Below, one piece after another: positions 7,363 through 63,724 of a stretch of DNA of 64,000 nucleotides. The stretch is taken from assembly GCA_023231475.1 (NCBI GenBank), contig JALJEE010002349.1:1-64000 (forward strand), written 5' to 3'. The translations under genes and the position numbers were made by a program. Below the pieces are notes generated by a model. The model saw nothing but the letters and a program-made list of their open reading frames with translations. It was not told the origin of the DNA and searched no databases. Source of the stretch: Seison nebaliae (taxonomy: Eukaryota). Position 1 is the first letter of the stretch; every line of letters begins with the position of its first letter.

Positions 7363-8610
7363 TTATCCATGAACTTCTCCAGCTTTTCCCGAAACCTTCA
7401 AACAGACATGAAAAGATAATTAAATCTTCATTAAATTAATTAAAAATTTAACTCTTTTAAAATCATTCATATTCGTCGTTTCGACTGTCGTTCCAAATAA
7501 AGTCAATTCATCAATTTGTGTCTCATCTGAATCATCTAAATTATCTTGGATGAAAATCTGAAGAAATTTTATATATTTCCAAATATATTCAAATTCAAAC
7601 AGTGATACTATTGACTCGTTGAAATTTGACAAATTTCACCAAAATTAATTCGTCTTCAAACGATTCTTTCGTTAATCTATTCAAATTAATTAATTCAATT
7701 CTATTAAATGAAAAAATTGGATAACGTAAATTCTTGAACACATTTATTATTTTCAGCGTCATCGAAACTTAAAGTTTTTAATTGATTTAAGAAGATTTTT
7801 ATAGTTTTCGGACCATTAGCTAGAGAGGAAGAAGAAATTGAATATTTTAAAAAATTTTTTTAAAGGAAACTCGATGGAGCATTAATTTTGAAGGAATGTA
7901 ATTTGACTGCTTGTGTAAATGACAATGTCAATAAGAGCTACAAAAAGAAGATAATATATAAGATATATAAAGAATAGAAAAAACTTGATTGTCACAATCG
8001 GAGACGAGAGATTCATTTTTATTGAAAAGACATTTCCAATTCTTTTCATCTTTCTCATTCAAACATTCACTTCTTGTCTTATCAATATATGGCATTAAAT
8101 CAATCTATCATTCTTAAATATGAAATGGAAAAGTGGAAAAATTATAAGGAACTTGTCCAGCTATTGCAGCGGCGGCACCGGCTTTCCCTGCTATTAATGG
8201 ATCTCGTTTCTTTTTCGATTCACTTTCCGTATTTAACCATTTTTTCAGACGTTCCTCCAAATCCGGTTTTACACCAGCAACCTCTTCTAATAATTTCCCG
8301 TCTCTTATAAATATGATAGTTGGCAATGCTTTCACACTGAATTGTTGAGCGACTTCCTATTTTCATAAAAATTTTTATAAAAATTTCATCGACAAATTAT
8401 AGTCTCATTACTAACAGCTGTCTCGTCGACGTCGAGTTTGAGGAAAGTTGCTTCCGAATATTTAGTCGCCATATTCTGCATTATTGGTGAGAGAATTTTA
8501 CAAGGACCACACCACGAAGCAGAAAAATAAGCGACAACTAAACGATTACCTGCAGCGACCAATTCCAAAGGAAATTGCTCATCAGTCTCAATATACTTCA
8601 ATTGACTCAT
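7363..8610 (-). CDS. TXNL1: Thioredoxin-like protein 1 (thioredoxin + PITH domain), 8 exons
   Basis: WCGPC active site. The spliced PITH domain reads DLMPYIDKTRSECLNE..LVSDCDNQLLLTLSFTQAVKLHSFKINAP..GPKTIKIFLNQ..LSFDDAE..VKFVKFQRVNSITIFIQDN..TTNMNDFKRVSGKAGEVHG*, matching the TXNL1 C-terminus. Seven introns, all GTT-AG. Confidence 0.95.
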
Positions 8611-9291
8611 TTCGTGAAGAAAATATTAGAATGTTAGGTGGAAAATTTAGGTTCTTTCATTCACACTATGATCTGTGGGAGAATTTAAAATGAAAATTTA
8701 AATATTTAAAAAATTTAAAAAAAAATTTAAATCTTAAGCTTTTAAATCAACAATTTTTTGGATTACTCTCATTCTTTTTTTTACATATTCATTCATTTTT
8801 AGTATTCGTATGACAAGTTTGATATTTGTAAGAATTCTCTTATTCCATTACACTCCTTCATTTTAATTATATTTTCTACATTCTTTTCTCTCTGATCAAT
8901 GTAATGTGGAAATGTTATTGTTTCGAGAATGTTCACCAATCCCGTTCCATTTGAAACAGGAAGAGGTGAAATGTGTCAATGGGAACCTGTTGTTGTTTGG
9001 AGATTTAAAAGACGAATGAAAATGATATATTATATTTCATTTTTTTTCCCATCGTCCCATAGTGGAGTGAGGAAGTTATGTATAACATTTTGAAAAGTTA
9101 AGCATAAATATCCATAGAGATTGAGACAGCTTAATCCGGTTCCTGGACCATTGCTTTTCCTAACACAAATTTTTTTTTCGTCCAAAATAATTAATATTTC
9201 TTTTTTCCTGCAAATAATTCATTTGAACAAAATTAGATTTTCTGTTCGATAATTATTAAATCTATCGATTTCGATTTGTTCCAGTGAAATT
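8611..9291. promoter_or_regulatory. Short divergent intergenic region between TXNL1 and XPO1 (probable bidirectional promoter plus 5' UTRs)
   Basis: Head-to-head start codons about 680 bp apart. No specific motif identified. Confidence 0.4.
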
Positions 9292-12200
9292 ATGGTGATT
9301 GACAATGGAACTAATAATTCCTCATCAGTTCAACCATCTCAGATGAGTAATGAAGCTGAGAATATTAAAAATAAATTATTATCTCAAGATCATCCAGATA
9401 TCGATCTGTTGGACAAGATTACTGACACGATGTTGAACGGTAGTGGAGAAGATCAGAAGAAGGCGGAACAGATCCTCAAATTAGTGAAAGAAGATAATGA
9501 TTCTTGGCTTCAAGTGGATTGGATATTGTCCAATTCAAGAAATAATGGCACGAAATATTTCGCTTTACAAATTCTAGAAGAATTAATTAAGGTTCGTTGG
9601 AAGATTTTGCAACCTCATCAAGCCCAATCCATCAAGACATATATTGTCGATCAAATTTTGACTTGTTCCAAAAACGAGAAATTACTCGACGATAATCGAA
9701 CTTTAGTGAATAAATTAAATTTGATTTTAATTCAAATTCTCAAACACGATTGGCCAGAGAAATGGGAGAATTTCATCGGTGAATTGATCGGTTCATGTCA
9801 TTCCTCCGAAACGGTTTGTGAGAATAATATGGAAATTTTCTCATTGTTATCGGAAGAGATTTTCGATTTCTCCTCCGAATCCATGACACAATTCAAAGCG
9901 AAACATCTGAAAGAATCGATGTGTCATGATTTCCAAAAAGTTTTCGAATTATGTCAAACGATTTTAGATCGTTCCTCAAATGTTCAATTGATCAAAGTGA
10001 CATTGAAAGCGTTATTGAATTTCCTCATTTGGATTCCCGTCGGTTATATTTACGAGACGGAATTAGCCGATAAATTGATCACTCGATTTTTACCAGCCGA
10101 TATATTCCGTAATTTGACGATGAGTTGTCTTACGGAAATTATGGGAATAGAATCGATTTATACACAACAATATTTGGTCGTTTTCAAAAAGATGATTCAA
10201 TTCCTTCAAGGATCATTCGAATTGAATGAACGTGATTTAGGTCAATTGAAAAAAGTTTATGAATCAGGAAATGAAACTCAACAACCATTCATTCTTCAAT
10301 TAGCCTTATTTTTAACGACATCATTAGGTAAACATTTCGATGATTGGAATAATTTGATTGATACACCTGATTCTGTACCAGCTCCATATATTCAATCAGG
10401 TGACACAATTCTCGCCTCAAAACATGACGACATTCACGATTATATGATTTATGCATTTAAATTATTATTACGAATCTCTTATATCGAAGATAATGAGATT
10501 TTTAAAATTTGTCTCGAATTTTGGAATCAAATTTTCCTCAAATTTTTTCGTATAACTCAAAAATCACCATGGAATACAAATAAACCGTTATATTCTCCAA
10601 TGGTTGATGTTTTCAATCGGATTAAAGGAAAAAATATGGCACCGATGCCACAAACCGTTTCTCGATATCGTCAAATTATCGATCAAGCGAGAAGATTAAT
10701 GATTGAGAACATGTACAAACCGGAGGAGGTTTTAGTTGTAGAGAATGAAGATGGTGTTCCTGTACGAGAAGTGATGAGAGATACGATCTCTGTCAATATT
10801 TATAATTCGATGAAGGAGACTTTAGTTTATTCGACGAATTTAGATGTGGTTGAAACGGAAATGTTGATGTTGGAAAAAATGAGTAAACAAGTCAATGGAA
10901 GTGAATGGTCATGGAAAAATTTGAATCGATTATGTTGGGCGATTGGTTCAATTTCAGGAGCGATGGCAGAAGAAGATGAGAAACGTTTCCTCGTTTCAGT
11001 CATTAAAGATTTATTGGGATTATGTGAATTGAAGAGAGGAAAAGAGAATAAAGCAATTATCGCCTCTAATATTATGTATGTGGTGGGACAATATCCAAGA
11101 TTTCTTCGGGCACATTGGAAATTCCTGAAAACGGTAGTGACGAAATTATTCGAATTTATGCACGAATCACATGAAGGAGTGAAAGATATGGCGTGTGATA
11201 CATTTTTGAAAATTTCGATGAAATGTAAAAAAAATTTTGTTATCGTACAACCTGGTGATCTTCGACCATATGTGTATGATGTGGTGGAAACGATGAAAGT
11301 AGTGACGAAAGATTTGGAATTAGAACAATTACAAACATTTTATGAAGCAGTCGCTTATATGATTGGAGCAGATATTGAATCACCAGATATTATCGTACAA
11401 TTATTTCTCGAATCGACAAATATCGAATTGACGAGAATGGTAGAAATGATAATGAGAAATTCGAGAGATTTATTAGATTTCAACGTTCTCACTAATCTCA
11501 TTCATATCATTAAGATTAATGTGAATACAACGAAAGGAATGGGTCAAATTTATTATTTACAATTTCGATCAATTTATAAAAAATTAATTGTGTTATATTC
11601 TAAACTTTGTGAATTCCTTCATAGTCATGCTGTCGTTATGAACGGTCCGAAACCATCAACAGAAGATGAAAATTCTTTATATCTCTACAATCTCCATTCC
11701 GACATCCTTCAACGAACACGAACATTAAGACGATTAATTTTACATACAGTCAATATTTGGTTGCCAAAAGTGCCCAGAGATTCAAATATTAATCAATTGA
11801 CAGATATAATGAATGAAATTTTTGATACTATTCTCGCATATTATAAAGAATCAGATCCCGTAGCTAAAGATGCGGAAGTGTTAGATACTCTTCGCATCTG
11901 TATCATTGTGTGGGGAAATCAAATGGAAGCGAAAATTTCGCAATTTATGGATCATGTATTCGAACCCACCATCAATATGATTTCGAAAAATTATCATGAA
12001 TGGCCAGATCATCGATCGAAGTTTTATGCATTTTTAGCAGCTACCGTCAAAGATTGTTTCCAAGGACTACTTCAATTCTCTGATGAACAATTGTCATTAT
12101 TACTCGATACCATCAGTTGGGCGTTAAAACATACAAATCGAGAAATTGGCGATTTGGGATTGGATATTTTACAGAAATTACTCCATCATTTCATCCAATG

Positions 12201-25500: not shown

Positions 25501-28500
25501 GATGGTAAATGAAGGAATCATTATCGAATATTTATGTACGTCCAACGGAATTTATTTATTTAATCTTTTGTATGAAATTTTTTATAAGAAAATTCTCGTG
25601 ACTGATATTCGATTGTTGACACAGGAAGTTTGTTTCACTTGTTTTCCTCTTATCACAACACCAGCATCATCTGGAATCGATTTATATGCACAACAACAAC
25701 AACAACAACCGTTCGCAACGTTATTATCAATCGAATCGAAGAATATTCACGAGAATAATATTCGATATCATTTAATGAGAATACCAATCGATTTCGATTC
25801 GATTGAAGCGATTCATGTTTTCTCACCATCGTTCTACGATACGACGAAAAGAAAAACTATCGATCATTCATTATCAATCATTCCATCGACTACCAATAGT
25901 GCTGGTACAATTCTATTGAGTTTTCCCATAACATCGATCGGATGTTATTCGATTGAAATTCAATTAATTCCAAATTATTCGAATGATGTTTGGAAGAAAT
26001 GTGTCGAGTATCTTTCGGAAAATAATTTGTCGAAATTGGAAAATTTTAAAGAAATTCAAATGAATTCTTTCTTCTTACATGATTCCATTAGTGCTTCTCA
26101 GAAAGAGTTATGGCAAACCGTTCCAATTCCTTTTGCACATTCGTCCTACGAATTTATGAATTCCATCAGACATGTCGATGAGAGTTTAGATGAGAATGAA
26201 GAGACATTACCATATCGAGGAAATTTTTATGATGAATTGGAGAATGAAAGAAGATTGAGATTTTCAAGAGATGTCTTTGATGATATCGAAGATACGTTTA
26301 ATGATATTCATTTGGTTTTCAATGAATTCTTTTATGGCGATAATATTTCCAGTCCAACATCTGACGATAGTTCAGTCATTTATAATGATATCATCGAACA
26401 ATTTCAACAATTAACAAACAATTTCTTCTTTCGCAATTATTCCACTTTCCATTTGAGACATAACATTCTCATACAAAATTCTGATTCCATATCAAATATT
26501 TATTGTGGATTATTCTCGTTGGAGAATACGGAAATAATTAAATTGTCTAATTATTTCGGAATTAATACCGTTGGTCTTGGAACGAAATGCGAAGAAAATT
26601 ATCTTTTAATATTTGGAGAAAAACCGAATTCAATTGAATCAGATTCCGATTTTCTCGAATTGAAATTAGACGAAATTTATGATAAGGAATCTGGAAAATT
26701 CTATTCGGATTCGAACGGTTACAAAGAGAAAAGCTTAATAATTTATGATGAGAATGATGATATTTTATCTCACGAATCATTGAGGGAATTGGCACCAGAT
26801 CAATCGTTCGCTGTGGTTTGTAAAGTGAAGAATTTCGGTTGGTATTTTACGATAATTTTCTTTTTTCAAATCGTCATTTTTTTTAGGAGTTTATACTTTC
26901 GAAATTTATAATGACACTTCCTTAGAAATCAATTCTCCATATACTTTGTTCATTACGAGAATTGTGTCAAATGTTGAAGATGAATCAGTTAATAATTTAA
27001 TTGAAGAAACTAGTTCGACAGTTAATGTACTTAATGTTGCGACGATTGTTGATGAATCGAATGAGATGATGTTAAAAGAGAAGTCTCCAAATGATGAAAA
27101 TGAATTGATGATCTTACCATCAAACCATCTACAGGAAAAGAGAAACATTTCAATGAAATCTTTATCGTCTGCTAATTTGTTATCTAAAGTTGATGAAATT
27201 GAAATGGATTACGATAATTTGAATGGAAAAAATGAGAATAAATTGTGCAATTCTTTGACTTGTATCAGAAAATATAATCCGAGTATTTTGACGGATGTCC
27301 AAACTCAAACGGAGAAGAAAATTGAAGAGAAAGAAGAATTTGTGCTAGATAAATGGAATTCGTTAATAGATTATGTGGAAATAACAAATGTACATGATGT
27401 GCAAGTGGGAGAGATTGCACATTTCATTATCAACATATCCATCAATAATGATGAGGTGGATGTGGAAGAGAAACCATTAGAATTACTACTTGATTTATTT
27501 CGTCATGGATTCTTTGAAGTTTACATTCTGGATAAAGAGATGAATTGTCTTGTTCACCAATTAGAATCGACAAATAAAGCGAATTATTTGGAAAGAGTCA
27601 AAGTGAAATTCCGTCCGATGTTAGTTGGAGAGAATATGATCAATTTGAAACGGAAAAGTTTCAAACAAATGAAGAATATTTATAGTATTCCATTCCATTC
27701 GTATGATATCGATCTAGTACGAATTGCACCACGTTATCCACACAAATTGTATTCAGTTCCTTCGAATTATTTGAATAGTAAATTATCTTATGATCCGGAT
27801 AATGTTTATTTCTTCGTCAATACGTCGTTAGCTGGTAAGGGAGAGTTGAATATGTGGATCGAAGAGAAATGTCAATCCAGAAATGGACGAATTAAACGGA
27901 TTTCTATGAACATTCGACAACTCAACAATGGATCGTGTGAATTATATTTTCCCGTGACAAATGATGGTTAGTTAAATGATTTTATTCAAACTTGATTGTT
28001 CTACATATTTCAAATGAATTCTTTATGAAATTATATGAAATTTAATTTATCATCATTATTATGATCTAATCAATCACTATTGAGTGAAATGAAATAGCTT
28101 TTATTATTATATTGTCAATTGAATTGACCGTCGTCTAATTGAAGTGATTCTATCGAGTTCGAGTATGAACATAATGAACTTCATAAAATTTTATTGTTTC
28201 GGAAGTAAATTAAAATTTCATTGTCTAACCATTCTTTACATTCTCGACATGTTACGATCAGTTATTTAATTAATTTCCATTCTGACTTACTTCGACATCA
28301 GATGGTGATTGGTGAGAAGAGTCACTTAAGAAAGATTTATAAGCAGATTTTCACCAACATTATGAAATCCGATGATACGATGAACGATGTTAGCTCGAAA
28401 ACTTTCTCAATCTTACCATCCCAATCAACTAAATCGATTGAACCGGATAGTTTAGATGTGAGTGATTTGTATAAGACAAACGATTCAACCCCGTCAAAAC

Positions 28501-31500
28501 AAACTTATACATACGTCGTCATTCAACGGAAACAACCCGAAACATCTCATCATCATCGTAATAAGAAGAATGAGAAAATTATTGATAAAACTAATTCAAA
28601 TATGACAAATGTTAATCCTCAAATGTACAACACTAATTTCAATAACAACAACAACAACGAGAATTGGAGGGAGAAAGAAAATGAAGATTTGAGGCGAAAG
28701 GAAATGGTCGATGGAAATAATGTAATGATTTGGCGAAATAATGAAAAGGATGTTGATGTTGTTGTCGTTGATGAAATTGTTGCGAATTTAAGCAATAGGG
28801 AAATGGATGAGGAGAAGAATGTGGAAAATCAAAAATCATTAACAATAACAACATCATCATCATCTACATCAAAACCGACAAGCAAATTTTCGTTGTCATC
28901 GTTAACAACGTCCGCCACGAGTCTTAGTGAGGAAGTAAATCCTATTGATTGTCATAATGAGTACGATAGAATCTTTTCAGAAAAAGATGGTCAGTATCAG
29001 TATATCTTTCTGACAGATTTATCATTCATTTATCTGTTCGCCATTCGACTCGTCAAAACTTCTCATAATCCCATTTAATTTATCTTCTAACTATTTCTGT
29101 GTTGTTCAATGTCCACAACTTTCTTCATCACTTTAACAAGTAGACGAGTGTTAATTTTTCTTCTTTTTTTGTGCATCAATTCTCCGAATGACGTCAGATT
29201 GAAATTTGTTTATTTTTAATGTCATTGAGTTATTTCTTCCCTCTTAACTTTTATTACTTCGATAATCGGCGACTATCAACTTTCATTGGAAGTGCTTTCA
29301 TTCGTTACATCTATATATCATCCCTCACTTCCAATTTCCATCATCATGATTATTAATGATACAATTATTTTTCACTTCTTCTCACCCGTTCAATCCGAAT
29401 ATGAAAGTATTTGACATCTTCAACCGAGACGCGTCGAATAGAAGAAATCTCTAATTAACGCCCAAAGAGGCGAACGGAAAATTTCAAATCGAAATAAAAG
29501 AAAACTTTTCAAACCGTTCTTCCCTTCGTTCTTTTTCACTAATAGAATTAGGATTAGTGAAATTTCAATTTTCATCAGTATTTTCCCCCCATTCTCATAT
29601 TTGTTGTATAAACAATAATGAAATGATAATCTATTCATACCTAAATACGTTCAGGTCATTTGAAAAGAATTTTATTCAATTTCAAAACTTCCCCAATTAT
29701 ATCCGCTAATCATCGATTATTATTAAAACTTTACTCTACTCATATCTCGTCTCACTTCTCCTCTCTCCTCTCTCTGTTAGCACAATATAATGTGAATGTA
29801 ACATTCAACGATCGGCATTTACTTGGATCACCATTCACTTATCATCATCATCATAACAACCGTTCAGACGATAATAGTCTTAATACAGAAATGTATGAAG
29901 AAATTCCTTCAAACCATCCACCAAATAACGAATTAGAATTGGAGGACAATCGTGAACCTTTGTCTCCTTCATTCCGACCAAATCCGCCCACCATGTCGCA
30001 ATTAAACGACAACGAAGATCGATCAATTTGCAATGAGAAATGTTCAAATTTTTCTTCTTTCTCCTTTTCCCTAATCAAATGCTAATCCATAACAGATATC
30101 GGGGACGATTTGAAAGTGTTTGAAGCCGATACCAGAATTAGTAAGTATCATTTTCATTTCTTTTACTTTGACGATTTTCAAATCGATTTGACAGAAACTG
30201 CTATTAAATTTTTTTGCTGATTTTCTATTAAGTGCTTCATTGTCTCTTCGAAATCTCCTTTTAGCTGATATACTTACTGATTCAAACGAAAATATTTATT
30301 TAACAATGCGCATTATATCAGATCGATGTCCAATATCTCGCGTATCATCAGTCAATGAAATTCTTTCTTCGGAAACGAATAAAAGGAATTCTTATTTCGA
30401 TCATTTCTATCGACAATTCTATAAAGAGAACGATTGCTATCATCTAAAATTAACACCCATTCCAAATAATAAGTTGCCTCATAACAATGCTAATATTAAT
30501 AATAATAACAACAATAATTTGTTAACGGATTCGAATGAATCGGTTAAATCTTATAAGATTTCTTCAATTTTAGGTTTGTTCTTAATTTTGCTAAATTTTC
30601 AATTTTATTCAAAATCAAAATTTTTTGATCAAAACAAATTTTTATATTTTTATTTTTAATTAGGCGATTCCGTAATAGACAAAGAGAATCAGATTAATAA
30701 TTTTGATGATAAGAATCATACCAATCATCTTCCAACAACCAATCCTAACAACAACAACAACAACAACAACACAAATGAAAATCAAAATGATCCGATTGTA
30801 AATCGAATGAATTATTCGGAGAATAAACTCGTCCCAACCAATGATGAAGTTCAAGTGAAAGTACCAAAATCTTCATTATCACGTCAATCTGTTCGTAACA
30901 AATCAGAACATCGACCAAATCATCATCATCACCATCATCGACGTCAACGATCGAAGCCGGAGAAGAGAGTGAGAGAGGAAGAAAATGCAGCGAGTTCTGA
31001 TGATCCGTTTGACGAACAGACGTTCCAAAAGAAGAATCATTCAGATGTCGCATCATCAATTCATCCATATAGTAATACATCCAATGTTTATTATCGTAGT
31101 TATAATCCGAACATACATGATAGTATTCGTTTAGTTCCGAATAAAACATCGGAACGATTCGGTATATCTAATTTGATCAGTTCTCAATATTTGCCCGTTG
31201 GTGGACATGTGAAATTGATAAGTTTAAATTAAATTCATTTTATATAATTTCATTTAATTCTTTCTTTCTCCAGTCACTCACACCGTTCCGATTAAAGTTC
31301 AAATATTGAAACAAGTTCAAGCACAATCATCATATGTCAGTTTCCATGCTAGACCGATGAAATTGACGCAAGAAGCAGATAAATTACAGAAAGATGGTAT
31401 TAGTATCGAACAAACGTTTGTTGAATTTACTGCTGAACCGATTATACCACCATCATCATCATCATCATCGTTACATGTAACTTCTGCATCGAAATTACCA

Positions 31501-43200: not shown

Positions 43201-44607
43201 GAAGATGAATTGCATCAAATACCTCGTCTCATCAGACGAGAATATATCGAAGTGTTTTCTATTTATAAATTTATTCATCATTCTTATAATCCGACATCAT
43301 CTTAGAAACTGAATGAGAGATAGTGAATAATCCGATTTCCACAATATGATTTCTTTCAGAAATATGTAAGTGTCAAAATCAGTTTGGAAAGGACCTAGAT
43401 CTTATTATCAGTTACTTGTAGGCTGAATAGAAAAGATTATCAGAGGAGAAGGTTGCAATTAAACTTTCTGTTTTCATTCATCAGATTTGTCATTGTGGTG
43501 ATATAGTGGAACTGGGTTAAATTAATCAGAACTTGTTGTCTATGAGAAGATAGAAAAGAAGGAGAGCATTATTCACCACGTCCAATTGTCCTTTAATCCC
43601 TAATTGTTTCGTTATTATTGATAACTTCACCATCCATCCACACATGGATAATTTGGATGAAACAAGAAAATGTTATTTTCTACAAATCACATTATTCTTC
43701 TCCCCCAACAACCATAATCATACAATCGAAATCGATGAATGATATTCTTTCTCCATCCATTCCATTCCGGCACATGTTCCAACGACACTCACTTAATGGA
43801 AATTCCTGTTTTGAACAATTCCAGCAGCAACGATTATCCTGCTGAAATGGAATGAAAGAGATAAATGAGAGATAAATATCAATTTATAGTTCAAGTAAAA
43901 TAACTTAATTGATAAATCTTTTGTATTCGACGTGGAATAATTTCAAATAATATAGGAACAATATGTCATAATGGAAAATGTGGACAAAGTATAATCATAT
44001 CGGAACATTTTCCTTAACGATTCTGTCATTCCTTCCAATATTTATCGTGTTCTCTCAAAACTTTATTAGGAATCATGTCATCGATACTTTTGTATCGAGG
44101 CAGAGATTCGTGAGATTCGTTCTTTTCGATTCTTTTTATCTTTTCTTCTTTTTCCAAACGGAACTATCCAGCTGAAGAGAAATATTAAAGTTTTTGACCA
44201 ATGGTCACGCACGTTTTGACTTTCTCCATGATTTAATTATGCTATTCCATTCTTTCTATGGGATGTGGATGGAATCAATTCTCTATCTTTCTTGTCTTCC
44301 GAAACAAAACGACGATGATTCAATCATCCCACAACAAATATTCAGTCACGATCATTTAAAAAAATGGAACATTTTACATATTTTGACTTTAACTACTCAA
44401 AGAACGTCGATATCAGGTCACTCTATGTCCACTCGCCTAATTGCTTTCAGTTCCTATTTAATGCCACAGGAATTATGTCTCAATCAATCTTATTCATTCC
44501 AACATTTTCCATTTTCTTTCTCCATTTTTGAATTGTTTCATCTCAGATCTTTTTTTCATCCCAAACAAATTTACAATTTAGAAATATCCAGTTTCCCCTC
44601 ACCAGAT

Positions 44608-47624
<3,017 letters not shown>

Positions 47625-48027
47625 AGAAACGATCGTCCTGCCTACTCGAAATATCGGGAAAGATATCACAATATATTATCACACATACACACACAAATGT
47701 TAACGAAAATAGTCAAACCAGAAGAATTTTGTTCAAATAATTTTTATTAAACATATTTCCAAATTGAGCTCGTTGTCAAATTTGTGAGAATTACATAGAT
47801 ATTGTGAATTATCAAATTGTCCGTAATGTAAATATTTGATTTGTCTACTTCATTCTTCAAATTCTTTTTCATTCATACAAATAATTATTCTTTCATTCGT
47901 TTATTATTCTCATCAATCTTTTCTACTCCTTTTCTTTTTCCTTTTCCTTTTCCATTTGGTTTCAGTTCAATCCCATGTGGCTCATTTATGTTATGAATCA
48001 TCGAATAATTGAGTCATCTCTTCTTAT

Positions 48028-49384
48028 TTACAATAAATTGTTCTTGTATTTAACATGTTGTTGGAAGATCCAGCCCACGTATTGAGCCACGTTCATATTA
48101 ATCGAATAACCGTTACAATTCTCATGACCAAAACTAACGATACCTAATTGTAAACTAGCGTTATTCGTATGAATAAACAAGGCCGATCCACTATCACCCG
48201 AACACGTGTCTCTCTTATCCAACCAATTATTATAGGAAGTACAAAAGGTTTTCCTGTTATCCTCTCTCAATTGTGGAACGCACAAATGAGATGGTAAAAT
48301 GTATAAAATCGTTTGACGTAGATCATTTCCATAATTTACGAATTTATCATCTGAAAAATTATTTGAAATTTAAACATATTTTTCAAATTTTTCAAATAAG
48401 TCCCAACTTGTCACACCGTAACCATTAACGATAATTTCGTCGTTATAATGAGATGTAAGATCGAAAATTTTCTCATCAAAATTTAAACAGATTAATTGAA
48501 TGATTGTCAAATTAAACGGTTGTCGAACGGAAACGAGAGCAATATCATCTTTGACGATTTGATTCCGATTCTTATTGTGATAATGTTGATAAATGAATGA
48601 TTGACGTTTATAATCATACAACTGATTTTCATGATAATCACGATGCTGAAATCATAAGAATTCGATATTTGAAAAATATTTAAAAACATTAACAATTATT
48701 ACTGATTCGATTCGTTGCATTTCTTCGTACAATTGGAAATTGATGGCGGAAACATAAACTTCACCCTTAATCGTTTTCGCTTCATCAAAACAGTGAGCTG
48801 CTGTTAAGATCATCGTTGGTGTAATGAGACTACCACCACAAATGGTGTTGTTGATATTGAGCAAAACTTCCCATCCATTGGCATTTGTTGACCAACCACC
48901 AACAATGCGTTTCCTCCTAATTCGTCTTCTTCTCCTTCGTCCACATCCTAAACAATTTTCAAAAAAAATTCAAATAAAATATGAAACTGTATTCGCAATT
49001 CAATCCAGTATATCCGGAGTAACATCTGCACATGATTAATTGATTGTTGATCATAGTCAAATAACCATTAGGAGAACAATTTAAATTATTCAATAATTCT
49101 TCAGGACAAAAGGAAAAAAATGTGAATAAATAAAAATTCGAAAATAAAATGTCACTTGTTTCACAACGAACACCGGTGGTGTGAATTGGACAAATACATT
49201 TGGTTTGTAGTAAATTCTCTTGACAATGACCTCCATTCTCACACAAATTCCTTGTGCAATTATAAGTCAATCGAACTGTGATTAGAATAGTAATTGATAT
49301 AATCACAACGAACGGAATTGAGCAGACTATATAACGACAGATTGGTATGGAATTCTCACTCTTATCATTCCAATTAACAATCAT
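48028..49384 (-). CDS. Type II transmembrane trypsin-like serine protease with 2 EGF-like domains, 5 exons
   Basis: N-terminal signal anchor IVCSIPFVVIISITILITV; EGF CENGGHC..CICPIHTTGVRC; activation site RRKR/IVGG; catalytic triad in TAAHC, DDIAL and RDTCSGDSGS (S1 Asp present). Confidence 0.88.
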
Positions 49385-49837: not shown

Positions 49838-50454
49838 TCAATTATTAATTTCATAATGACATCGTACAGTCATTTTCCCTTGTACTATAAAATCGGATGC
49901 AATTGCCAGTGCACTACAAAATTGTGCATATGACCTTTCATTTATTGAGTGACATCATTGAATGAACATTAAGAATGATTGTTGGAAAGGAAAGGTAAAC
50001 CTTTGGAATAAAGAAAATGTGCATATCGAATCTTCTCCGATATTTACATTTGATGGCAATACAATTGATCCACCTGTCTGCCAAAACAAAATAAAATTAC
50101 CAAATTACATTTTTTTCATAATGGCGACACATGTGAATGGAATGGAATACATGTGGAATAATGATAAGAAAACGAATTTTATTTATTCATCAGTTCATTC
50201 AAATACCAATAATAACTTCTCCATAAATTCCGTATATGATTCGACGCATATTTGCCATGACATCATTCTTCGTCAATAGATACTTGTCATTCCATTCAGT
50301 GGATTTGCTTAAGAATAAAAATAAATTTGCTTTCAGTACAATACTTTCTTCGAAATACAAATACCAACATTTTCACTTGAACTTCTACGTCTCCATTCTC
50401 ATCCACTTTCCCTTCTTGTCTTCTTCCCGACATTTGGAGTGGAACGATTTTTTC
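49838..50454 (-). CDS. Putative small multi-exon gene of unknown function (absent from the ORF track)
   Basis: Phase-compatible exons ..NLFLFLSKSTEWNDKYLLTKNDVMANMRRIIYGIYGE|gtt..cag|TGGSIVLPSNVNIGEDSICTFSLFQR|gtt..aag|SYAQFCSALAIASDFIVQGKMTVRCHYEINN*. The 5' end is unresolved. Confidence 0.35.
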
Positions 50455-51324: not shown

Positions 51325-53946
51325 ATGAAGAATTCAACATGTCACGGAATACCGAGATTACTTGATGCAATTTATGGTAATCCAAAAATTAAACGTCGAA
51401 TAACTTTATGGTTATTATCCGTAATATCTGGTTAAGTTCATTTTAAAATATTGATTAATTTAAAAACATTTCATTACTATTAAAGCAACTGGTTTAATGA
51501 TCGTGTTAGTGAAAGAGAACTTAAAAGTTTACATTGCCAGAGATGTGACTTACCAGGAGGAATTGACGAATCATTTGACTTTACCTTATCCATCAATAAC
51601 ATTTTGTAATTCTAACTTTTATAATCGTTCACGATCAATGGACGATGAAGAAAAAGCGAAAATAATTCACGCTTCTTATCTTTCCCGAACATCGTTAACG
51701 GTCGACAACTTCAATGAATTGCATAATACTGATAAACGACAAATATATCTATTCGAATTATTTATGAAATTGATGGAGAAAGATCTGAATGATTTGTATG
51801 AATTGGAATGTCTATCTTCAAATAAATCTGGAATATTAAATGAATTCCATTGTGATGGATTTGAAACTGTTGGCAAAGTGAGTGTATCTTGTGCGTTCTC
51901 TCTCGTTATAGTCATGAGAGTCATCATGGATGACGATCCATATTTGACCACTTTCGGAAACACAATTCTGAAAAACAAATCTCTATGGAGAAGTTACATC
52001 TGTACACAATTTCAAAATGATGAAATACAAAGAGAATATTGTCATGAATCCATCAAGTCCTATAGTTACATCGATTATCAAATGAAAATTTATGTAAAAA
52101 ATTTCAAATATTTCATTAATAACAAATGTTTCGATATGAATGATAAAATTTTAGACAATTATTTCTTTCAACATAATGTGGTCGAATTGAAGAATTGGGA
52201 TTATATCATGGAACTGTTCTCATTTGATCAGGAAACGTCGAAACAAGCCGAACCGAAATTAGCTGAATTGCTAAAGATATTCTATCGGAAAAAGGGTCCG
52301 GATCATCTTTTTGTTAGTAGTACGGAAATGATATTAAGTGAAATTGTATTCCCTACAAATGATACATCGCTTGAAGCGGAATTCGGTAGGGAAATAAGAA
52401 ATCTCGTCAAATTCAATTTCACGAACGAACTCGATCGACAACTAAAATATCATGCAAAAGCATTAGCTCTGTATTATTTCATTCGTTTCAATGAACCTTT
52501 TGTCGTAAATGGTAAATCTTTTTAAAATTAATTTAATTTCAAAATTTCTCTCCAGGACTCGGTGATCCGCAATATTCGAACGATATTAATTACAATATAA
52601 CGGATTTGTTTTGGGATGCTGAGAAAAATAATTTCCTATTAAAATGTCGAATCAATTCATTAATTTGTGAGAAATCAGTTTGTCCATTTTTTATTCAAAA
52701 ATTTTTCAAAAATTTATTTTACGATATGTTCTTATAAAAGTATATCATTTATACGTATACTGGACTGGGGAAGTGCCTTCAATTTAATGGTAGAGGAGAT
52801 GAGGAATTATATCAGAGTATATTCGAAGATGACGAATTGGAATTCGTTTTCGATTTACATTCTTATGAAATCGACGATACTGTACGACATTTTACAGAAA
52901 ATACGGTTTTATACCATTTTTCTAACAGTAATTCCCAAATTAAATAATTCTAATATTAACAGAATGCATTAATTATGGATATTCATGGAAAGAATGAGCT
53001 AAAGTTTATGACCCAAACCGTCTTACCAATCGAGCCTGGGTATAGTACCGAAATTGTCATTACGCCAACACATCAAGACAATAAACAACGTGTTCGATTG
53101 AAATATGGGAAAGATTGTTCGAAGATGAAGAAGAATTGGCCAAAAAGTTTCACGGTTGACAAACTCTTTGAGACATGTAAACGTGAGTGTATGTTGAATA
53201 ATATTACAAGTAAATTCCATTGTCAGCTGGCTTTGGGCCAAATTAGTTCGGGTTATAATTTAAATGTTCAATTTTGGATTGCATTTAATCGGATTGTCAT
53301 TGAATAGATTTGGACTATTGTGAGAATAATCGAACGAAAATATTGGAAGTGAAGACGTTCAGAAATAATTTTGATTATAATTCCTGTAATTGTATCGAAT
53401 CGTGTTTCACCATCTCCACATCGATAGAACTATCGAAATCAGATATTGACCCGTCGCAAATTTTAAGAAAATATCAAACATACATTCTAAAATGTTTATT
53501 CGACAATCGTAATAATCGAACAGTTTAGTACAATTTTTCTGGAAAGTATCTCATGGAATAATTCTGCATTATGTTGAAAAGAAACTGAAAGATTTGAATC
53601 TGAATAAATTAAGTAAAGAATGGGAGGCGGTAGCGAACAAGTATTGTTTGAATCGTGACAATATCAAGTTTAATATTTTATTTGAAATAAATCTCCTTCT
53701 TCTTATGTTAACTTTAGAAATAATATTGTCATGTTGAGAATTCGATTTACAAGAGATACGTTGATGGAAATGAAAAGTATTGAAGTGATGCCCATCATCA
53801 CTTTGGTATCAAACATTGGCGGGGTGATGGGACTCACTTTTGGTATGTCAATAATAACTATAGTGGAAATTATGAGTATTTTATTGAAAACTATTTGGAG
53901 GAAACTGAAAGAGAATGAACATATTTCGAAAGAATTACAAAAATAA
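51325..53946 (+). CDS. DEG/ENaC (amiloride-sensitive sodium channel family) subunit, at least 8 exons; true start may lie upstream
   Basis: N-terminal STCHGIPR (HG motif), TM1, YPSITFCN, GKCLQFN, Cys-rich CKREC..CNCIESC, and TM2 LVSNIGGVMGLTFGMSIITIVE (GxS selectivity filter). Confidence 0.9.
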
Positions 53947-54045
53947 TTTTTGAATTATAATTTCTTTATGAAGTTGTGATCGTCTAAACTAAACGTGGAG
54001 AAATAGTAAAATGAATGGCAGTTGTTTCTTTTTTAAATGTTTTGT

Positions 54046-57000
54046 TTATAAATTGAAATGTTCGTAACGTATTCCTTGCACCAGATAATTACCTGGGGGT
54101 CTCGTTCTCAATATTTTCACTCCACTTCGGGATTGATCTGACATTCACGAAATAATTTCAAATAAATTAATAAAGTCGAATGTTTAACGTGGATTAAATT
54201 GATTTTTCTCATTGAACTTCCCAAATTGAACGGGTAATTGATCCGATTTCTTTACTTTGAAAACCATGATTAACATATCATCTGGTTTCCGTTGACATAC
54301 CAGAGCCTGTTTAGTCAAAGCTTCCGCAATTTGGTTCGGCGATTGGCTACCCTAATCCGAGTAGAATTAAATGAATTTGCAAATTAATTGAATTAATTAA
54401 AACATATTTCTTCATTACTTCTTCCACTTCGTTATCGTACAAATTGTCATATAAACCATCAGTCGATATTATAACCACATCGTCTTGTTTTGCAGTAAAT
54501 TCATCAAAAGAAATATCATCCAAACTACGATGAATGAAAAAGAAATTAAAATGAAGCATTTTCAAAAATTTCAATATGAAACTTTATAGCCGAATATTTA
54601 ATACCTTGTTCCATCAGTTCACGATGCCATGGATAAATATCAACTTGTTTCGGACAATCGCCATTCTTTCCTTCTTCGAACGATTTGAAGATGATACCTT
54701 CATTTTGGCGATATACTCGGAAACCACTATCGCCTACATTCATTGTGCACAATTTACCAGTGTCCTGATTTAATGTGGCAACCGATAAAGTACAACTTCC
54801 TGTAAAAAAGAAAAAATTTTAAATAATTAATTTAAATAATAAAATTAAATATATAGACGAAAAATTATTAAAACCATGAACGGTTCCTTTATCCATGAGA
54901 ATTTTAAAGGAATGAAGTAAGAGTGATTTGGGATCATCTTTATGATATCCATGATGTTCGATAGCGTTCCCCATTTCTTTCATTAATTCTGAGGGGAAAT
55001 CCGCAGGATTAAATCCGATGTCAGCATTACCGCTGGCACCGTCAGCTATTCCCATAATAAAGCCATCTCGTGTATGAGCTAAATATCCGGCATCATCACC
55101 AAATATTCCTGTTTCGATATTGTAATTTCCCGGTTTGATGTTGTACTCATTTTTACCAATTCCACAAACACCAAATTCCGCTTGGAAATATTTTCCTTCA
55201 GGAACTGGTGGCAATGGTGTTGGTTGTGCAATTACACTATCGTTGTCATGACCACCCAGCAGAATTTTATTACGAGATTTCGATTTCTTTGTATTAGAAG
55301 ATCTTCGTTTCTTCTCTTTATAACCGATCGGCAACGGTGTTGATACTGTTGATGGTGTTGATATGGGAGTTTTCGGATTTTGATAATTTAAATTGGAAGA
55401 ATTATTATTAATCGATGACGTGTCATTTGTAGTTGCTGTAAAAGTGGATGAAGTGACAGTTGTCCTATTTGTCGTTGCTGTATTAGCTGTCGTATTTTCC
55501 ACCAAATTTCCAGTATCGTTCACGTAAAATTTTTGTTCCTCAGGCACTCGAGATTTGCCGTAGAGAATTCGGTTGTAAATTTTTTCATTTTCCGACATGG
55601 TCGTCGGAACGCCAATGTCCAATTTATTCATTTTCTTCACGATTTCTAAAGCATTGGCTATGGCATATGGATCTTCCGCTCCCGTTGTGTCACTGCGAAT
55701 AGTGAACTTCTTTCCGTCTTCTTCAAATTCGTGATTTGCCGTTGTTCGAATTTTTGAATAATCATGATTGATGGTATTTTCAATGGAAGTGTTATTAGTG
55801 GAATTATTGATTTTTGGAATATTATTTATTGAATTGACATTCAACTTATTCGTAACATTCTTCCCATAATTTTCTTGATAACTGTTGTCCATCGCAGTCT
55901 CATCTTTATTCTTATAAATTTCCTTATTGGAATTTATGAAATTTTGAATTGCCAAATTCGAATCATTATAAATATTATTTGTGATGTTATTGTTGGAAGA
56001 ATAATTGACATTATTCGTGAACGTTGACGTATCAAAATTTCCGTTATTTTGATAATCATAATTATTATTATTATTATTGTTATTCGTTATATTTGTTGAA
56101 TAAGATTGAGCATATCCATTTGATGAATTTTCATTTTGATAATTCGGAATATCATTACTACTATTATAATTAGAGATTGAATAATCATTTCCATAAGGAT
56201 CGGTATTACCGAATTGATGATTATCGTAATTAAAATTATTGCTGTTATTATAATTATTGTTATTATAATTATAATTATTGTTGTTGTTGTTATTGTAATT
56301 GTAGAAGTCGTCAGTAGATTGGCTTAACGCTCCGTAATTATTTGGATATGTATAATTATCGTTGTTGGATTGGTGAGACCATTGATTATCATAAAGATCT
56401 GTTTGATTTGTTTGATACATTACTTTATTTTGTACTGATGACGGATACGGTTTTCTTGATGACTTGCTACTCATTATATTCGACGAAGAATTATTAGGAG
56501 AATTATTCGACAATATTAATGATGTATTGTTATTTAATACATTAGTGAATTGTTTGGTCTCTCTTACGTAGCTCTCGATTTTTTCATTGGTAGCCGCTAT
56601 ATGTCCCTGAGATATCTTTTCATCATTATTATTCAACTGTATTGTCTTGTGGGAGAAAGGTTTGGATTGCTTGTGATATTGATTGTAGTCGAAATCCAAT
56701 TGAAGTTCTTCAATTTTCACATTATTATTCTTCTTCAACAACTTATTGTCAGTGTACAATGCGCTTTGAGGAGTTGAATTACCCGTATATTCTTTCCAAT
56801 AATTGTTGTTCATTAAATAATTTTTCGACATTTTCTTTTTGTGTGGTTTATTGAAACGTGACGAATTTTTACTCTTTAACTTTTTCTTATCAATCGGTGT
56901 CGTTGGTGTCGACAGGAAACTCTGCGTTGCGTTCTCATTTCTCGAAGTCGACGTTCCTTCTTTACCTTCGTAATGAATTATCGTACGGAAATAATCAGAT

Positions 57001-58314: not shown

Positions 58315-61300
58315 TTATCTGTATGAACTCTTACTTATTGCATTGCGAGATCGAAGTTGTTGTTTGATAACCGGAACTTGAAGATCCTGTTTCTTCAAAC
58401 GATATTGTCGTTGTTTATGCCTCTCTATTCTCTCCTCATTCATCTGTTCATTATTCTTATTTACAACCAACACATTATGAGCCTTCTTATACCGATTATC
58501 TAATAATTCTGCTGGTAAATTGAAATGATTCAATGTCGAATGAGACATCAAATCATTTTGCTGTGTCTTCTTCCCTTGTAATTTCTGGCGAAGGAACGTA
58601 TCTGAATCCGAATTAAACTACACAAACAAAATTGAATCATAATTCAATCAAATTAATAATGACCTTATCATAGTGATTAAGATTGGGTAGTTTTTGCGGA
58701 CCTTGTTTCGATTTGTACAATTTCAAGTTATTATCTATTCATCATCATCATGATTCAATTTAGATTACTATTTTGATAATCAACAAAAGTAGAACTTGGA
58801 CGTCCCATCGTCTCATTATTCGTCTTGTGATGAAGCATCATGTTCGTACTTGAACTCAACAGATTTCTCTTGAGATCATTATACTTTAATTTATCGTGTG
58901 ACTGTTTCTTTATAAATTTGAATGTATATTCCTTCGATTTCCGATTCTCTTTCGACTTGTTCAGCGATTTGCTTTTTAAGTCATTCGTTGGAAGATGGTA
59001 GACGGTCGACGAATTATCGTTACTCAGATCAGTGTTATTCAGAGAAATATTATGATCCATTATACTACTCTTGTTATCTATCATCATCATTCATTATGAG
59101 ATTTTAATCAAATAATTGAAAATTATCAAACCATCAAAATAATTGAAATATTGAGATTTGGTAGAGGTGGAACTGAAATCAAGATCCTTACTCGAATTAG
59201 CCAATAATTCCAATTCTCTCTCCCTCCGATTCTTCTCATCATTCAACGATTGAATGTCACTGTCGATCTGATTGAAATAATTCGATTTGTTTGCCCATGA
59301 ATCTGTATCGGAGTTCTGCAAATTATTATTGATCGATAATTTACTGTTTGTTAGACGATTACTTGGTGATTGTAATGCATTCATTAACGCTTTCGTATGA
59401 TCCGTTGGAATTGACACAACAATCGGATTGTTATTACTTTTACGTGACTTTGCACTTCTTTGTTTAACTTTCGACAATGTCCTTTGTTTTAACGACGATT
59501 CCGTTAAAAATTTATCTTCCATTGTCAATGAAGACTTTTCTTGTTTACTGTCACAAATACTACTACCCACTCCACTATCTTGTGTATTACTTAATGAATT
59601 ACTTATCGTTAGTGATTTCCTGCAAAAAAAATTTTAAAAAAAAATTTAATTTAAGAAAAATTTTTAATAATTAAACTTTTTTTTCAATACATCAAAGAAC
59701 GGATGTTGTAACGCTTTCGTGGCACTTATTCGACTAGCAAAATCATATTCTAATAATTCATGAATCAGTTCCAAGTATTGGGAGGTGATGGTGGATGGCA
59801 ACAGGTAACTGAATCCCTTACCTTCCACGTGATGGAAATTGAGGTCCATGCATCGTGTTTTACTTAATAAAAGCCTAATAGACATTTCGCATGAGCAAAA
59901 TTCAAATTAACTATTTAAGTTTGTTAAGAAATTTGGTGGACGGAGTGCCGAACACTTCATGAATTTTACCAATTTGATCCAATTCATTATTACCGGGAAA
60001 CATTGGACGGAGACTAAATTATAAATTATAAATAAATCAAAAATTTCAAATCTCAAAAAATTTTCACGAGTTTTCTAACGTTGTAATTTCGAACATAACA
60101 CAACCAATACTCCAAATATCCATTGGAAATGAATAACATCCATCAGTCAGAAGACATTCAGGTGCACGATACCTGCATGGGAAATATTCAATAAATCTTC
60201 ATTCACAATGTACTAACCATCTAGTCGAGATATATTCAGTATACGGATAACCCGCCGATATCTGTTTACACGATCCGAAATCTCCCAATTTCAACTTGTC
60301 ATTCGTCTGACGAATTTTCGTGAGAAAAAAAAATGAAAAAAAATTTGCAATAAAAAAAAACATCTAATAAAATATTTTCAGGTTTTATATCGCGATGAAA
60401 TATTCCATGACGGTGCATATGATCCACTGCACTCACCAATTGATAAGTCAATTTCCTAATGGTTTTAATCGATAACAATGTATGTCTTTCTATGAATGAT
60501 GAAAGTTCGATATTGACATATGAAAATTGGAAATGAATTGAACTTCGTACAAATTCGTACAAATTCCGTTCCATTAATTCAAAAATGAGGTATAGAGTGC
60601 CATGTTTACGGTCGTAGATAACTTCATATAAATGCAAAATATTTGGATGTCCTCGCAATTGTTTCATTGCTTGAATTTCCCGCAATTGTTTCACCTGTTC
60701 CACACTTCAACCATTCCGAAAAGAGTTTTATGAAGTCAATTAAAAATTTTCGAAACTTTTCATATTTTTGCCTCATCCGTTTGCAAGCACAATAACTATT
60801 GCTAACGGTATTGTAACATTTGGAAACTTCGGAAAATGTACCATCTCCAATCTTTTCGATGACATTATATTCTTCAAGAAAACATGAAATTATTAATGAA
60901 ATTTTCAATTCGTATCATAATTTTTCCTCTTATTTATGAATTAGTCTAATGGAAGTAATTTGGAATGAATATCGTTCAAAAATCGATATCTATCAACTTT
61001 ATGATTAAGTTAAGAGAATGCTTTCCTTTGAAGACACTCTAACTACTTTCACTGTTATTCTTCCTACTAATTGTGTAGTGGACAGGAAGCTAAAATGAAA
61101 AATGAGTCATTTTTGGTCCATTCTCTCTCATTAGCAATTCTATCACTAACAAATTGAGAGTATTGTAAGAGACTAATACGTGACGGGATTATGGAAGAGA
61201 AACCTGAAATATTTAAATAAGATGACTTATTGAAATGTGCCTTATTCTCGTTCTTTAACAGATTCATATAAGAGCGCAAATAAACGTAGAAGATTTCCTC

Positions 61301-62143
61301 TACGTAATTGGAGAAGTTGAAAGAATTTTTTTTGCAGAAAGAATTAATAGAAGAAACTATTATTTTTGGTTAGTGGACAATCTTCAACGTGATGAAGAAT
61401 ATCATGATTTTCTGTGTATTATTAAGAGAAAATAAACATTCCAATGAAAATATAGAAGATGAAGAAGTAGATGATTTTGGTTAGAATAAACGGAATCTTC
61501 ATTCGACCTTCACTTCTCACTTTCTTTCCTGTAAAACAATCGATTTATTCATCTCCCTCATTCCCGATGTTATCGAGAAGCAAAATTTCCATTATAATAT
61601 TCTTGTAATCCTCATAGAACGAATGACGTTATCGCTTTCATATTCTTCCTTCCAATTCTTCTTCTTCTTCTTCTTCTTCTATTCAATCAAACTTTTTCTT
61701 CAATTCCAAAACCATTTTCACAATAGAATACAATTAAACGAATAACGCGAAATAATGAAAATCAAACACTTACAACCGAACAAATATATTCATTATTCAC
61801 GCAATCCTCCTACTCCCTTATTTACCAATGTACACTTTAATCTTGTTGCTTATTTCGTTTCTGGTCTCCGCTATTTCCTCCTCATTTCACTTTCTCTACA
61901 GATCCTGATCAACTCTACCGAATTCATTAAAATTGAACTCAATTACTTAAGATAAAGACGGAAATTAAATCATAATTAATAATTGTATATTATACAATTA
62001 ATGAAGTAGCAAAATTCTGTTGAACGATTTTCGAACAGAATTTAAATTATCGATGAAAAATCTTAAATTTTTTTTCTTAATTCCTCACAGTTCATTGTCA
62101 GCTTCATTCATTTAATCAATCACTTACTTTACTAACTATCCAT
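58315..62143 (-). CDS. MOK: MAPK/MAK/MRK overlapping kinase (MOK/RAGE), about 12 coding exons, first coding exon only 7 nt
   Basis: MDKYNVIEKIGDGTFSEV, LREIQAM, FHRDIKPENILL, LKLGDFGSC, YTEYISTRWYRAPECLLTDG and FPGNNELDQIGKIH match MOK. ATGGATA|gttagt at 62143-62137 splices in frame to 60871. A long low-complexity tail follows the kinase domain. Confidence 0.9.
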
Positions 62144-62860
62144 AATTGTCTTCATTTCTTCCACCATCAATCGTTACCGGATTGTGATATATTGGACGAG
62201 GAAACGAGTGAGAACCAAAATAATCATTTAATGATTTAATACAAAAAATTTTATGGCGACTATTCTCCATTTCTTTCTTTTTCGCTCTAAGGTGTTTTTC
62301 TTTCATTGTTTTTATTTTAATTTGAATCGACAAGAAAACTTATCTAGAATACTATCATCCATCTCAATAATTATTTAGGGAGAACAAGGTCAACCTAATA
62401 ATAATTCGCCTCCAGGTTCCCCTATTACAAAACGCACTATATGCCATATCTCGAAGAATTCCAATTAAAAAGGATTGGTTGGATACATTGTATGTTGGAC
62501 AACAATTCCTTCATTTGACATGTGTAACGATTATTAAAGAAATTTCATTTTATTATAATAAATTTTAATTTTCAATTTATTTATTTTGATTATCAAATTT
62601 TAGTTCAATTCATATTGTTATTAAGAACTAATCTCGTTTATTATTGGAAATCGATTAAATTTTCTTTTTTAATCACTTAAATTAAATTGATGGAAAACAA
62701 GTTCATAAGTCGTGTGAACATTGTCGTCAAAATTAGATAACAGTTATTACTATAGTTATAAGTAACTTGAAATTAATTTGAATGAATTAGGAAGAAAAAA
62801 GAAAATGTAAAATATTTCAATTTAAATTTTAAGTTTCTTTCTAAAAAATTTTGACTAAAA
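62144..62860. promoter_or_regulatory. Short divergent intergenic region between MOK and SUGT1 (probable bidirectional promoter plus 5' UTRs)
   Basis: Head-to-head start codons about 720 bp apart, with an AT-rich core. Confidence 0.4.
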
Positions 62861-63724
62861 ATGGTGAAATTGACGGAATTAATCGAAAAAAAGTTTTCTT
62901 TTCTAGAATATTCTTCTCATCTGTGAACTGAAATTTTCAGATTAAAATTCTCTCAGACAAATGAAGAATTCACCGTTGAATTGCCTTTTGACGACATTCC
63001 AAAGAATGACTTAAAAATAAAATGTCGAACAGATCAAGTTTTTTCTGAAATTTCATTTTTCCATTACATAAATTCAATTAGATTGAAATTATTAATTTGG
63101 GAACGGAAGAACGAAAAATTTTAAAGTTGTGGGAAGAGATCGATCAATCGTCTGTGCAAATTGAAAAGACAGAAAAAGAAGTTTTTTTCTACAAATATTT
63201 AAAGTCTCGAAAATTCTCTCGAATCTTTCGACTATTAGGTGAAAATTAGTGGTAAAAAGAAAAGTGGTGGGTTATGGGAATCTTTAGAAAGTTTCATTTT
63301 GAATTCAAAACTCTATTAAATTGGATGAATTTTAAAAGAAACGAATACTGAAAAGGCCACTATAAAATCGATGGATTATGATAAATTCAATAAAATGGCA
63401 AAAGAGATAGAGAAGGAGGAAGAGACAGAAACAGGTGAAGGAGATGAAGCTTTGACAAAGTTTTTTTCTTCTTTTTTCGATTCTTTTAAAATTTTTGTTA
63501 AAGAATGTTTCGTAAAATTTATGCAGATGGATCTGATGAACAAAAGAAGGCAATTCTTAAATCATTTGTTAACAAGATTGTTTTGAAGATTTCTTGATAA
63601 TTTTCTAATTGTTTAGAGTGAGTCTGGTGGGACTGTTTTGAGCACAAATTGGAATGAAGTAAAGAATGATAAAGTGGAAGTGAAACCGCCAGATGGTATG
63701 GAATATAAAGAATGGGAGAAATAG
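62861..63724 (+). CDS. SUGT1: SGT1 co-chaperone (CS + SGS domains, no TPR), 7 exons
   Basis: The spliced product contains a CS-like region ([30 protein letters not shown]) and the SGS signature [56 protein letters not shown]. Six introns, all GTT-AG. Confidence 0.93.

Follow-up and report, generated by a model that had tools for sequence, protein, structure and literature searches.

The introns of a 64,000-nt stretch of the Seison nebaliae genome (JALJEE010002349.1; hereafter the window, with all coordinates in forward-strand numbering) begin almost without exception with GTT. This donor start, where most animals have GTA or GTG, is found in 58 of the 61 introns that we placed, in DNA that is eukaryotic in character and has 31% G+C. 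Its near-universality in the window is confirmed, and the change of donor code in this intron-rich animal is real, strong and apparently unreported. A sequence-only reading of the same stretch had proposed that the lineage reads its donors by a different rule. The data support this, as the bias is present in RNA, is specific to intron position +3 and is not seen in equally AT-rich bdelloid-like loci. Of the components that it named as possibly altered (U1, U6, U1-C/Luc7/TIA-1), we consider U1 the most likely.

GTT donors in RNA, in protein alignments and against controls

The introns were placed by evidence of three tiers. The first consists of joints in the contigs of run X2 that skip GT-AG stretches kept by the DNA-like runs X1 and X3. 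X2 was treated as spliced RNA solely from such skipping, no run being recorded as RNA; it comes from the same study as X3-X5, and the best DNA runs are possibly the window's own source and so not independent of it. X2 also holds a second, diverged contig set with many letter differences in exons (49901-49938, 50255-50259, 60130-60142, 60596-60658), which is consistent with the two S. nebaliae strains of the genome paper (PMC8351084). Of 45 X2 joints 15 are listed, and 9 of these 15 are clean GT-AG introns, seven of them in or after an SGT1-like gene and two within a short gene on the minus strand, all with GTT (9/9); the other six are long repeat-type jumps or joints carrying other letters. 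An RNA joint with three differing letters was also found for the intron 60079-60014 of a MOK-like kinase gene. All 10 spliced-RNA junctions among the joints listed, at which the GT and AG termini are removed from the RNA, start with GTT (p=9e-5 alone).

The second tier is a custom spliced protein aligner whose sole splice-site requirements are GT (or GC) and AG; it applies no donor score, and we therefore call it donor-blind. The junctions of the TXNL1, XPO1 and filamin genes rest on protein alignment. The donor-blind alignments gave GTT in 27/28 introns, and tiers one and two together in 36/37. The third tier covers the 24 of 61 introns placed by eye, namely 11 in an EGF-CBM14 gene, four in a protease gene, six in a DEG/ENaC gene and three in a PP2C-like domain; the spliced frames of these four rest on eye reading and not on end-to-end program translation. 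We dropped non-GTT alignment gaps that lie in frame within open frames (11225-11803, GTA; 10328, GTA, in 2/5 homologues; 19104, GTC, in a poly-Q tract), and kept outside the tally two exceptions of an ab initio model (33908, GTA; 5758, GTG), one ambiguous DEG/ENaC intron and about 10 GTT calls made by the ab initio model only. If every doubtful case is counted against GTT and the extra GTT calls are left out, the count is 57/67 (85%).

These tiers bear on the possibility that GTT reflects an artefact of annotation or gene prediction, with the true donors at nearby GTA or GTG sites. The eye placements speak for it, as does the fact that the named proteins P0001, P0121 and P0122 probably annotate the same assembly as the window. 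The ab initio model called a non-GTT donor in 7 of 33 confident cases, among which are antisense shadows and picks known to be wrong. In the RNA joints listed for the window, where the sequence-only reading had proposed to look for such shifted donors, GTT was found each time. In addition, alignments of proteins from other species, which involve no donor score, also arrive at GTT for XPO1 and filamin, while the same methods yield GTA in the controls. An annotation artefact is largely refuted by the spliced-RNA joints, and we regard it as exceedingly improbable.

Base composition was examined in two ways. In the window as a whole, T follows GT at a rate of 0.392, against which 58/61 has p=2e-20. 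The interiors of short introns contain 49% T and 33% A, and 58/61 against 0.50 still gives p=2e-14. The earlier argument that AT-richness would favour A and T equally at +3 does not hold for this background, but its conclusion stands, since the bias far exceeds composition.

The comparison with relatives, suggested by the earlier reading, was made with bdelloid-like loci. Seison is a seisonid rotifer, grouped with acanthocephalans and then with bdelloids (PMC8351084). A scan with the XPO1 protein of Rotaria led to 80 fetched loci, seven of which served as genomic controls (89-95% identity to Rotaria XPO1, 27-34% G+C, introns of 42-67 nt) and are bdelloid-like by similarity. Their XPO1 introns, 12 of them distinct, start with GTA in 10 cases and with GTT in two (Fisher p=3e-8 versus the window). 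Across the 16 well-anchored of the 80 fetched loci, 31 distinct position-donor pairs have A at +3 in 27, T in three and G in one. The ab initio model, which is also donor-blind, is noisy (it shows antisense shadows and, relative to the MOK alignment, wrong picks at 59941 and 60244) and was used only for a like-for-like contrast: at a posterior of at least 0.9 it calls GTT in 26/33 donors of the window, versus GTT in 5/32 and GTA in 23/32 in five bdelloid-like loci (one near-duplicate pair among the 32). GTA prevails in bdelloid-like introns that are equally AT-rich and equally short, so the GTT bias is due neither to composition nor to method. AT-richness as a cause was rejected on these grounds and because T at +3 is far above interior T.

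The controls also speak to another explanation, in which recognition is relaxed and +3 has drifted under T-rich mutation, or in which the introns descend from an intron-making element that ended in GTT. It would fit the T-rich interiors and the many donors that are simple T runs. However, T makes up 95% at +3 versus 49% at +4 (p=2e-14 against 0.5), and the AT-rich bdelloid-like introns mostly keep GTA. An element should leave related introns, yet the 17 short introns of TXNL1 and MOK are no more alike than shuffles (best pair 12, shuffled maxima 11-16), and an introner or transposon origin was rejected for want of similarity above shuffles among these 17, the only introns compared. Moreover, one intron position is common to another animal: the XPO1 intron 12674-12719 (phase 0, residue 1022 of the Rotaria protein) has a counterpart with a GTA donor in locus L046. 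On this single comparison (n=1), conversion of an old intron thus appears to have happened at least once. We consider drift or an intron-making element very unlikely.

Genes and introns of the window

The 51 introns traced by hand in the sequence-only reading were reproduced, with GTT in 7/7 introns of TXNL1, 2/2 of XPO1, 6/6 of the SGT1-like gene, 11/11 of EGF-CBM14 and 3/3 of the PP2C-like domain. Its exceptions reappeared as well: MOK has 10/11 GTT plus gtcatt, the protease three GTT plus gtgaca, and DEG/ENaC five GTT plus gtaaat and one ambiguous intron. Its statement that most filamin introns follow the same rule is borne out by 8/8 consensus donors from homologue alignment. These eight and three RNA-shown introns (63932-63978, 50216-50078, 50000-49935) are what the present analysis adds to the earlier set. 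The genes and introns are as follows.

7363..8610, minus strand: TXNL1-like gene (thioredoxin and PITH; Pfam PITH, Thioredoxin), from donor-blind spliced alignment to the named protein P0122 over 297/297 residues.
Introns of the TXNL1-like gene, minus strand, donor-acceptor, 7/7 GTT: 8415-8357, 8152-8105, 7984-7938, 7870-7820, 7725-7677, 7600-7558, 7452-7396.
9292..12863, plus strand: XPO1 gene, introns 12527-12602 and 12674-12719, both GTT, donor-blind with 5/5 other-species homologues.
17729..35202, plus strand: introns of a filamin-like region, with eight GTT consensus donors at 17729, 18188, 18386, 23345, 34204, 34490, 34766 and 34957.
33908, plus strand: likely GTA exception in the filamin-like region, from the ab initio model only.
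44607..47624, plus strand: EGF-repeat/CBM14 gene (Pfam EGF, CBM_14), by eye via EGF cysteine spacing.
Donors of the EGF-repeat/CBM14 gene, plus strand, 11/11 GTT: 45479, 45661, 45824, 46000, 46168, 46460, 46638, 46805, 47037, 47195, 47352; four also from the donor-blind model.
48028..49384, minus strand: EGF-trypsin protease gene (Pfam Trypsin), by eye and from the ab initio model; donors 49155 (GTG, gtgaca), 48987 (GTT), 48693 (GTT) and 48407 (GTT).
49935..50216, minus strand: short unnamed gene with two RNA-shown introns, 50216-50078 and 50000-49935, both GTT, from X2 joints.
51327..53946, plus strand: DEG/ENaC gene (Pfam ASC), by eye and from the ab initio model; GTT donors 51431, 52678, 52906, 53252 and 53668, and GTA donor 52512 (gtaaat), with an in-frame GTT alternative at 52485.
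53494 or 53453, plus strand: ambiguous DEG/ENaC intron (GTT, 35 nt, or GTC, 71 nt), outside the 61-intron tally.
54352..54874, minus strand: introns of a PP2C-like domain, donors 54874, 54582 and 54403, 3/3 GTT, by eye and also ab initio.
58318..62155, minus strand: MOK-like kinase gene with 11 introns, from donor-blind alignment (10 introns) and the ab initio model (first intron).
Donors of the MOK-like gene, minus strand: GTT at 62136, 60756, 60543, 60361, 60217, 60079, 59911, 59676, 59131 and 58795; GTC at 58663 (gtcatt).
62861..63978, plus strand: SGT1-like gene and a downstream intron, from X2 joints absent from the DNA-like runs X1 and X3.
RNA-shown introns of the SGT1-like region, plus strand, 7/7 GTT: 62893-62940, 63038-63081, 63181-63238, 63291-63338, 63460-63503, 63568-63616, 63932-63978.

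The last of these introns, 63932-63978, lies downstream of the SGT1-like gene proper, whose 6/6 introns are all GTT and all seen as RNA joints. The names SGT1-like and PP2C-like are those of the earlier reading, in line with sequence motifs, and are presumptive; the single PP2C-like exon tested gave no Pfam match.

The XPO1 frame is identical (100%) to a named S. nebaliae protein over residues 1-644, and its full-length matches from other animals show 40-43% identity. The named XPO1 protein P0001 has 956 amino acids and lacks 193 conserved residues owing to a 579-nt gap that begins with GTA (11225-11803, plus strand). The reading frame is open throughout this gap, and 5/5 homologues align across it, none supporting it. 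It is probably a gene-model error and possibly an exitron. In S. nebaliae, gene prediction that expects standard donors may go wrong, as P0001 exemplifies.

Single exons of MOK and TXNL1 are likewise 100% identical to named S. nebaliae proteins, and homologue searches with such exons matched only the species' own proteins, which leaves these two genes with no anchor from another species. The first MOK intron is 1265 nt long with a GTT donor at 62136. Within it, 9 nt behind the GTT donor implied by the named protein, is a textbook GTAAGT (62127-62136, minus strand), the use of which would lead to an in-frame stop codon; the junction at 62136 is protein-implied and not RNA-derived. In protease intron 3 the ab initio model favours an in-frame GTA at 48702 over the GTT at 48693.

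A filamin donor was called consensus when it was present in at least 5 of the 20 best homologue alignments per segment; such alignments gave no consensus intron for the segments 25300-28100 and 29600-32600. The filamin-like region spans about 23 kb (13844-37040, plus strand), in which long divergent low-complexity insertions, such as a 1178-codon frame at 23375-26911, separate recognisable filamin repeats. It is either one giant gene or several.

Other features of the window include a tandem array with a unit of about 30 nt (6512-6790), between the 3' end of TXNL1 and the neighbouring gene. Fragmented frames at 950-3500, with repeated short words of the GGACAGTTCTAC type on either side, resemble a decayed transposase, presumably with MULE/FLYWCH-like motifs. 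A glycogen-binding AMPK1_CBM domain lies at 4212-4574 (minus strand, E 1.4e-9), and a sub-threshold thymosin/WH2-like match at 37603-38600 (plus strand, E 1.7e-4), both in neighbouring genes. An Rfam search of the window returned no snRNA and nothing at gathering level; one sub-threshold SNORD37 match in a coding exon (E 0.075) was taken as chance.

Donor anatomy and a predicted change in U1

The base composition of the donors was counted by hand over the 61 introns. Position +4 is at background level (T 30, A 23, C 5, G 3). At +5 we found T 20, A 19, G 14 and C 8; G at 14/61 gives p=9e-4 versus an interior G of 0.09, and p=0.049 with G set at 0.144. The 13 donors with G at +5 reported earlier came out as the same number by hand count, and the reported absence of the textbook GTAAG extends to GTRAG as a whole (R, purine), with 0/61. 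Position +6 has T 26, A 25, C 7 and G 3, and G at +7 occurs in 2/61. On the exon side, -1 is A in 30/61 and G in 20/61, and -2 is A in 32/61 and C in 6/61; exons end in AG in 7/61 cases, and none of the seven in TXNL1 ends in G. GTTTGT occurs once and GTTTG four times in 61, and linkage of +4A with +5G was not significant (p=0.12). Minor, U12-type introns have a strict GTATCC/ATATCC-type donor. Such donors number 0/61, and this class was rejected. What marks the donor is an almost invariant U at +3 and a modest preference for G at +5, with otherwise little information, in introns that are short (roughly 50 nt), U-rich and GT-AG. Acceptors of the AAG type are found in 8/29 introns (SGT1-like gene, short gene, TXNL1, MOK and XPO1), including 4/9 clean RNA joints, and the 3' splice signal may be relaxed as well.

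A near-absolute requirement for a single base at +3 would point to a base pair. The standard 5' end of the U1 small nuclear RNA (snRNA) has U or pseudouridine at the position facing +3 (PMC4856993). We predict that U1 of S. nebaliae has a 5' end with A facing +3, so that the GUU core would pair in the normal register, helped by intron definition; we hold this prediction at even strength. A single U-to-A change in U1 would restore pairing with +3U, much as two changes together do in Entamoeba. Little pairing is left otherwise (G at +5 in 14/61, exon-end AG in 7/61), and the introns are therefore probably defined across the intron. TIA-1 and Nam8 are U-binding helpers of splicing, and definition across U-rich introns of about 50 nt is probably aided by proteins of this kind. 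The change would be younger than the separation from bdelloids, and older introns would have been converted by it.

The position of the G enrichment, at +5 and not at +6 or +7, fits the normal pairing register. It also bears on a different explanation, that a standard U1 pairs in a register shifted by one or bulged at +3 (A|GUUAAGU-type), which requires +3U. Such registers have been shown for human sites (PMC4856993), and they predict -1A, found in 30/61, as well as +3U. On the other hand, the diagnostic +6G (3/61) and +7G (2/61) are at or below background with the G peak at +5, -2C is found in 6/61, and +4A and +5A are at background. The shifted or bulged register was rejected, as +6G at 3/61 does not replace +5G; we consider it quite unlikely.

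The main alternative keeps a standard U1 and has +3U imposed later, either by the U6 ACAGA(GA) box, whose central G could form a G-U wobble or which could itself have a changed base, or by proteins or modifications that have been altered (U1-C, LUC7, SNRNP27K, METTL16, N6-methyladenosine in snRNA). A standard U6 ACAGA pairs better with GUUUGU, and U1-C has diverged strongly in Entamoeba (Roy and Bowser, bioRxiv 10.1101/2022.06.08.495308). Donor choice can be settled at the U6/U5 stage (PMC11732430), and in Fritillaria the splice code is altered with the U1 sequence unchanged (bioRxiv 10.1101/2025.08.15.670264). Nevertheless, selection driven by U6 should put +5G, a strong G-C pair, first, and +5G is found in just 14/61. 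Effects of METTL16 and SNRNP27K act on +4 and not on +3 (PMC11732430), and +4 is at background here. Selection at U6 or through proteins is possible, although we lean against it.

Several points also weigh against the predicted change in U1. Our confidence in it goes no further than an even balance. Most lineages with atypical donors, such as yeasts, Giardia, Trichomonas, Micromonas and Thecamonas, keep a standard U1 (bioRxiv 10.1101/2022.06.08.495308), and Fritillaria, an animal with odd splice sites genome-wide, has a strictly conserved U1 5' end (bioRxiv 10.1101/2025.08.15.670264). The donors of the window lack the strict consensus at +4, +5 and +6 that goes with the U1 change in Entamoeba. 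There are exceptions to GTT, of which gtcatt in MOK is real and gtgaca, gtaaat and the donor at 33908 are probably real. Finally, the sample is a single 64-kb window with 61 introns, 10 supported by RNA and 24 placed by eye, and the control set is small.

With these points in mind, we suggest tentatively, and at somewhat less than even confidence, that S. nebaliae, as the first animal to do so, has acquired an altered U1 5' end, that GTR donors gave way to GTT throughout its intron-rich genome once it had separated from bdelloids, and that its donor consists of little beyond GUU and a U-rich tract.

Comparison with known splice-site codes

The pairing of U1 with the donor is regarded as near-frozen in animals, and changes of donor code have been linked to protists and fungi with few introns. 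With about 90% GTT donors in an intron-rich animal, it can be tested how thousands of existing introns come to be re-coded and which part of the spliceosome yields; such tests are feasible since close relatives of Seison retain the standard code, as the bdelloid-like loci show. In the literature we found no report of GTT-dominant donors for Seison or for any animal, supplements and subscription journals being outside the search. In the available text of the Seison genome paper, supplements again excluded, 'splice' occurs once, within a homeobox method (PMC8351084).

The two major-spliceosome donor classes of metazoans have GT donors in common with Seison (PMC11732430). They differ in that the Seison window has GURAG in 0/61 and exonic AG in 7/61, so that 54/61 introns fall in neither class. 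Human shifted and bulged registers tolerate or need +3U with a standard U1 (Tan et al., PMC4856993, citing Roca and Krainer 2009), but they are rare and depend on a G no earlier than +6; in Seison, +6G is found in 3/61 and is not enriched. Fritillaria borealis is, like Seison, an animal with a genome-wide change of splice-site code. There the terminal dinucleotides have changed, whereas Seison keeps GT-AG and changes +3 (bioRxiv 10.1101/2025.08.15.670264).

The sequence-only reading had singled out near-exclusive GTT as the oddity, and had overlooked the existing description of Entamoeba, where donors are near-exclusively GUU and U1 has co-evolved. In that genus the donor is GUUUGU(U) and the pairing segment of U1 is ACAAAC, with 88-90% of donors GUUUGU and 97-98% GUUUGN; Mastigamoeba has a separate compensatory change (Roy and Bowser, bioRxiv 10.1101/2022.06.08.495308). 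Given this precedent, the novelty lies in the intron-rich animal and in the low-information form of the donor. Seison and Entamoeba share GT-AG introns, near-universal +3U and an AT-rich genome. Entamoeba is intron-poor with a strict GUUUGU, whereas the Seison window has GTTTGT in 1/61, an unconstrained +4 and G at +5 in 23%. Genes in the window carry from two to 11 or more introns (TXNL1 7, MOK 11, EGF 11), versus the low density of Entamoeba, and the host is an animal. Seison donors work like the Entamoeba type at +3, without its strict motif and its intron poverty, and we do not class them there.

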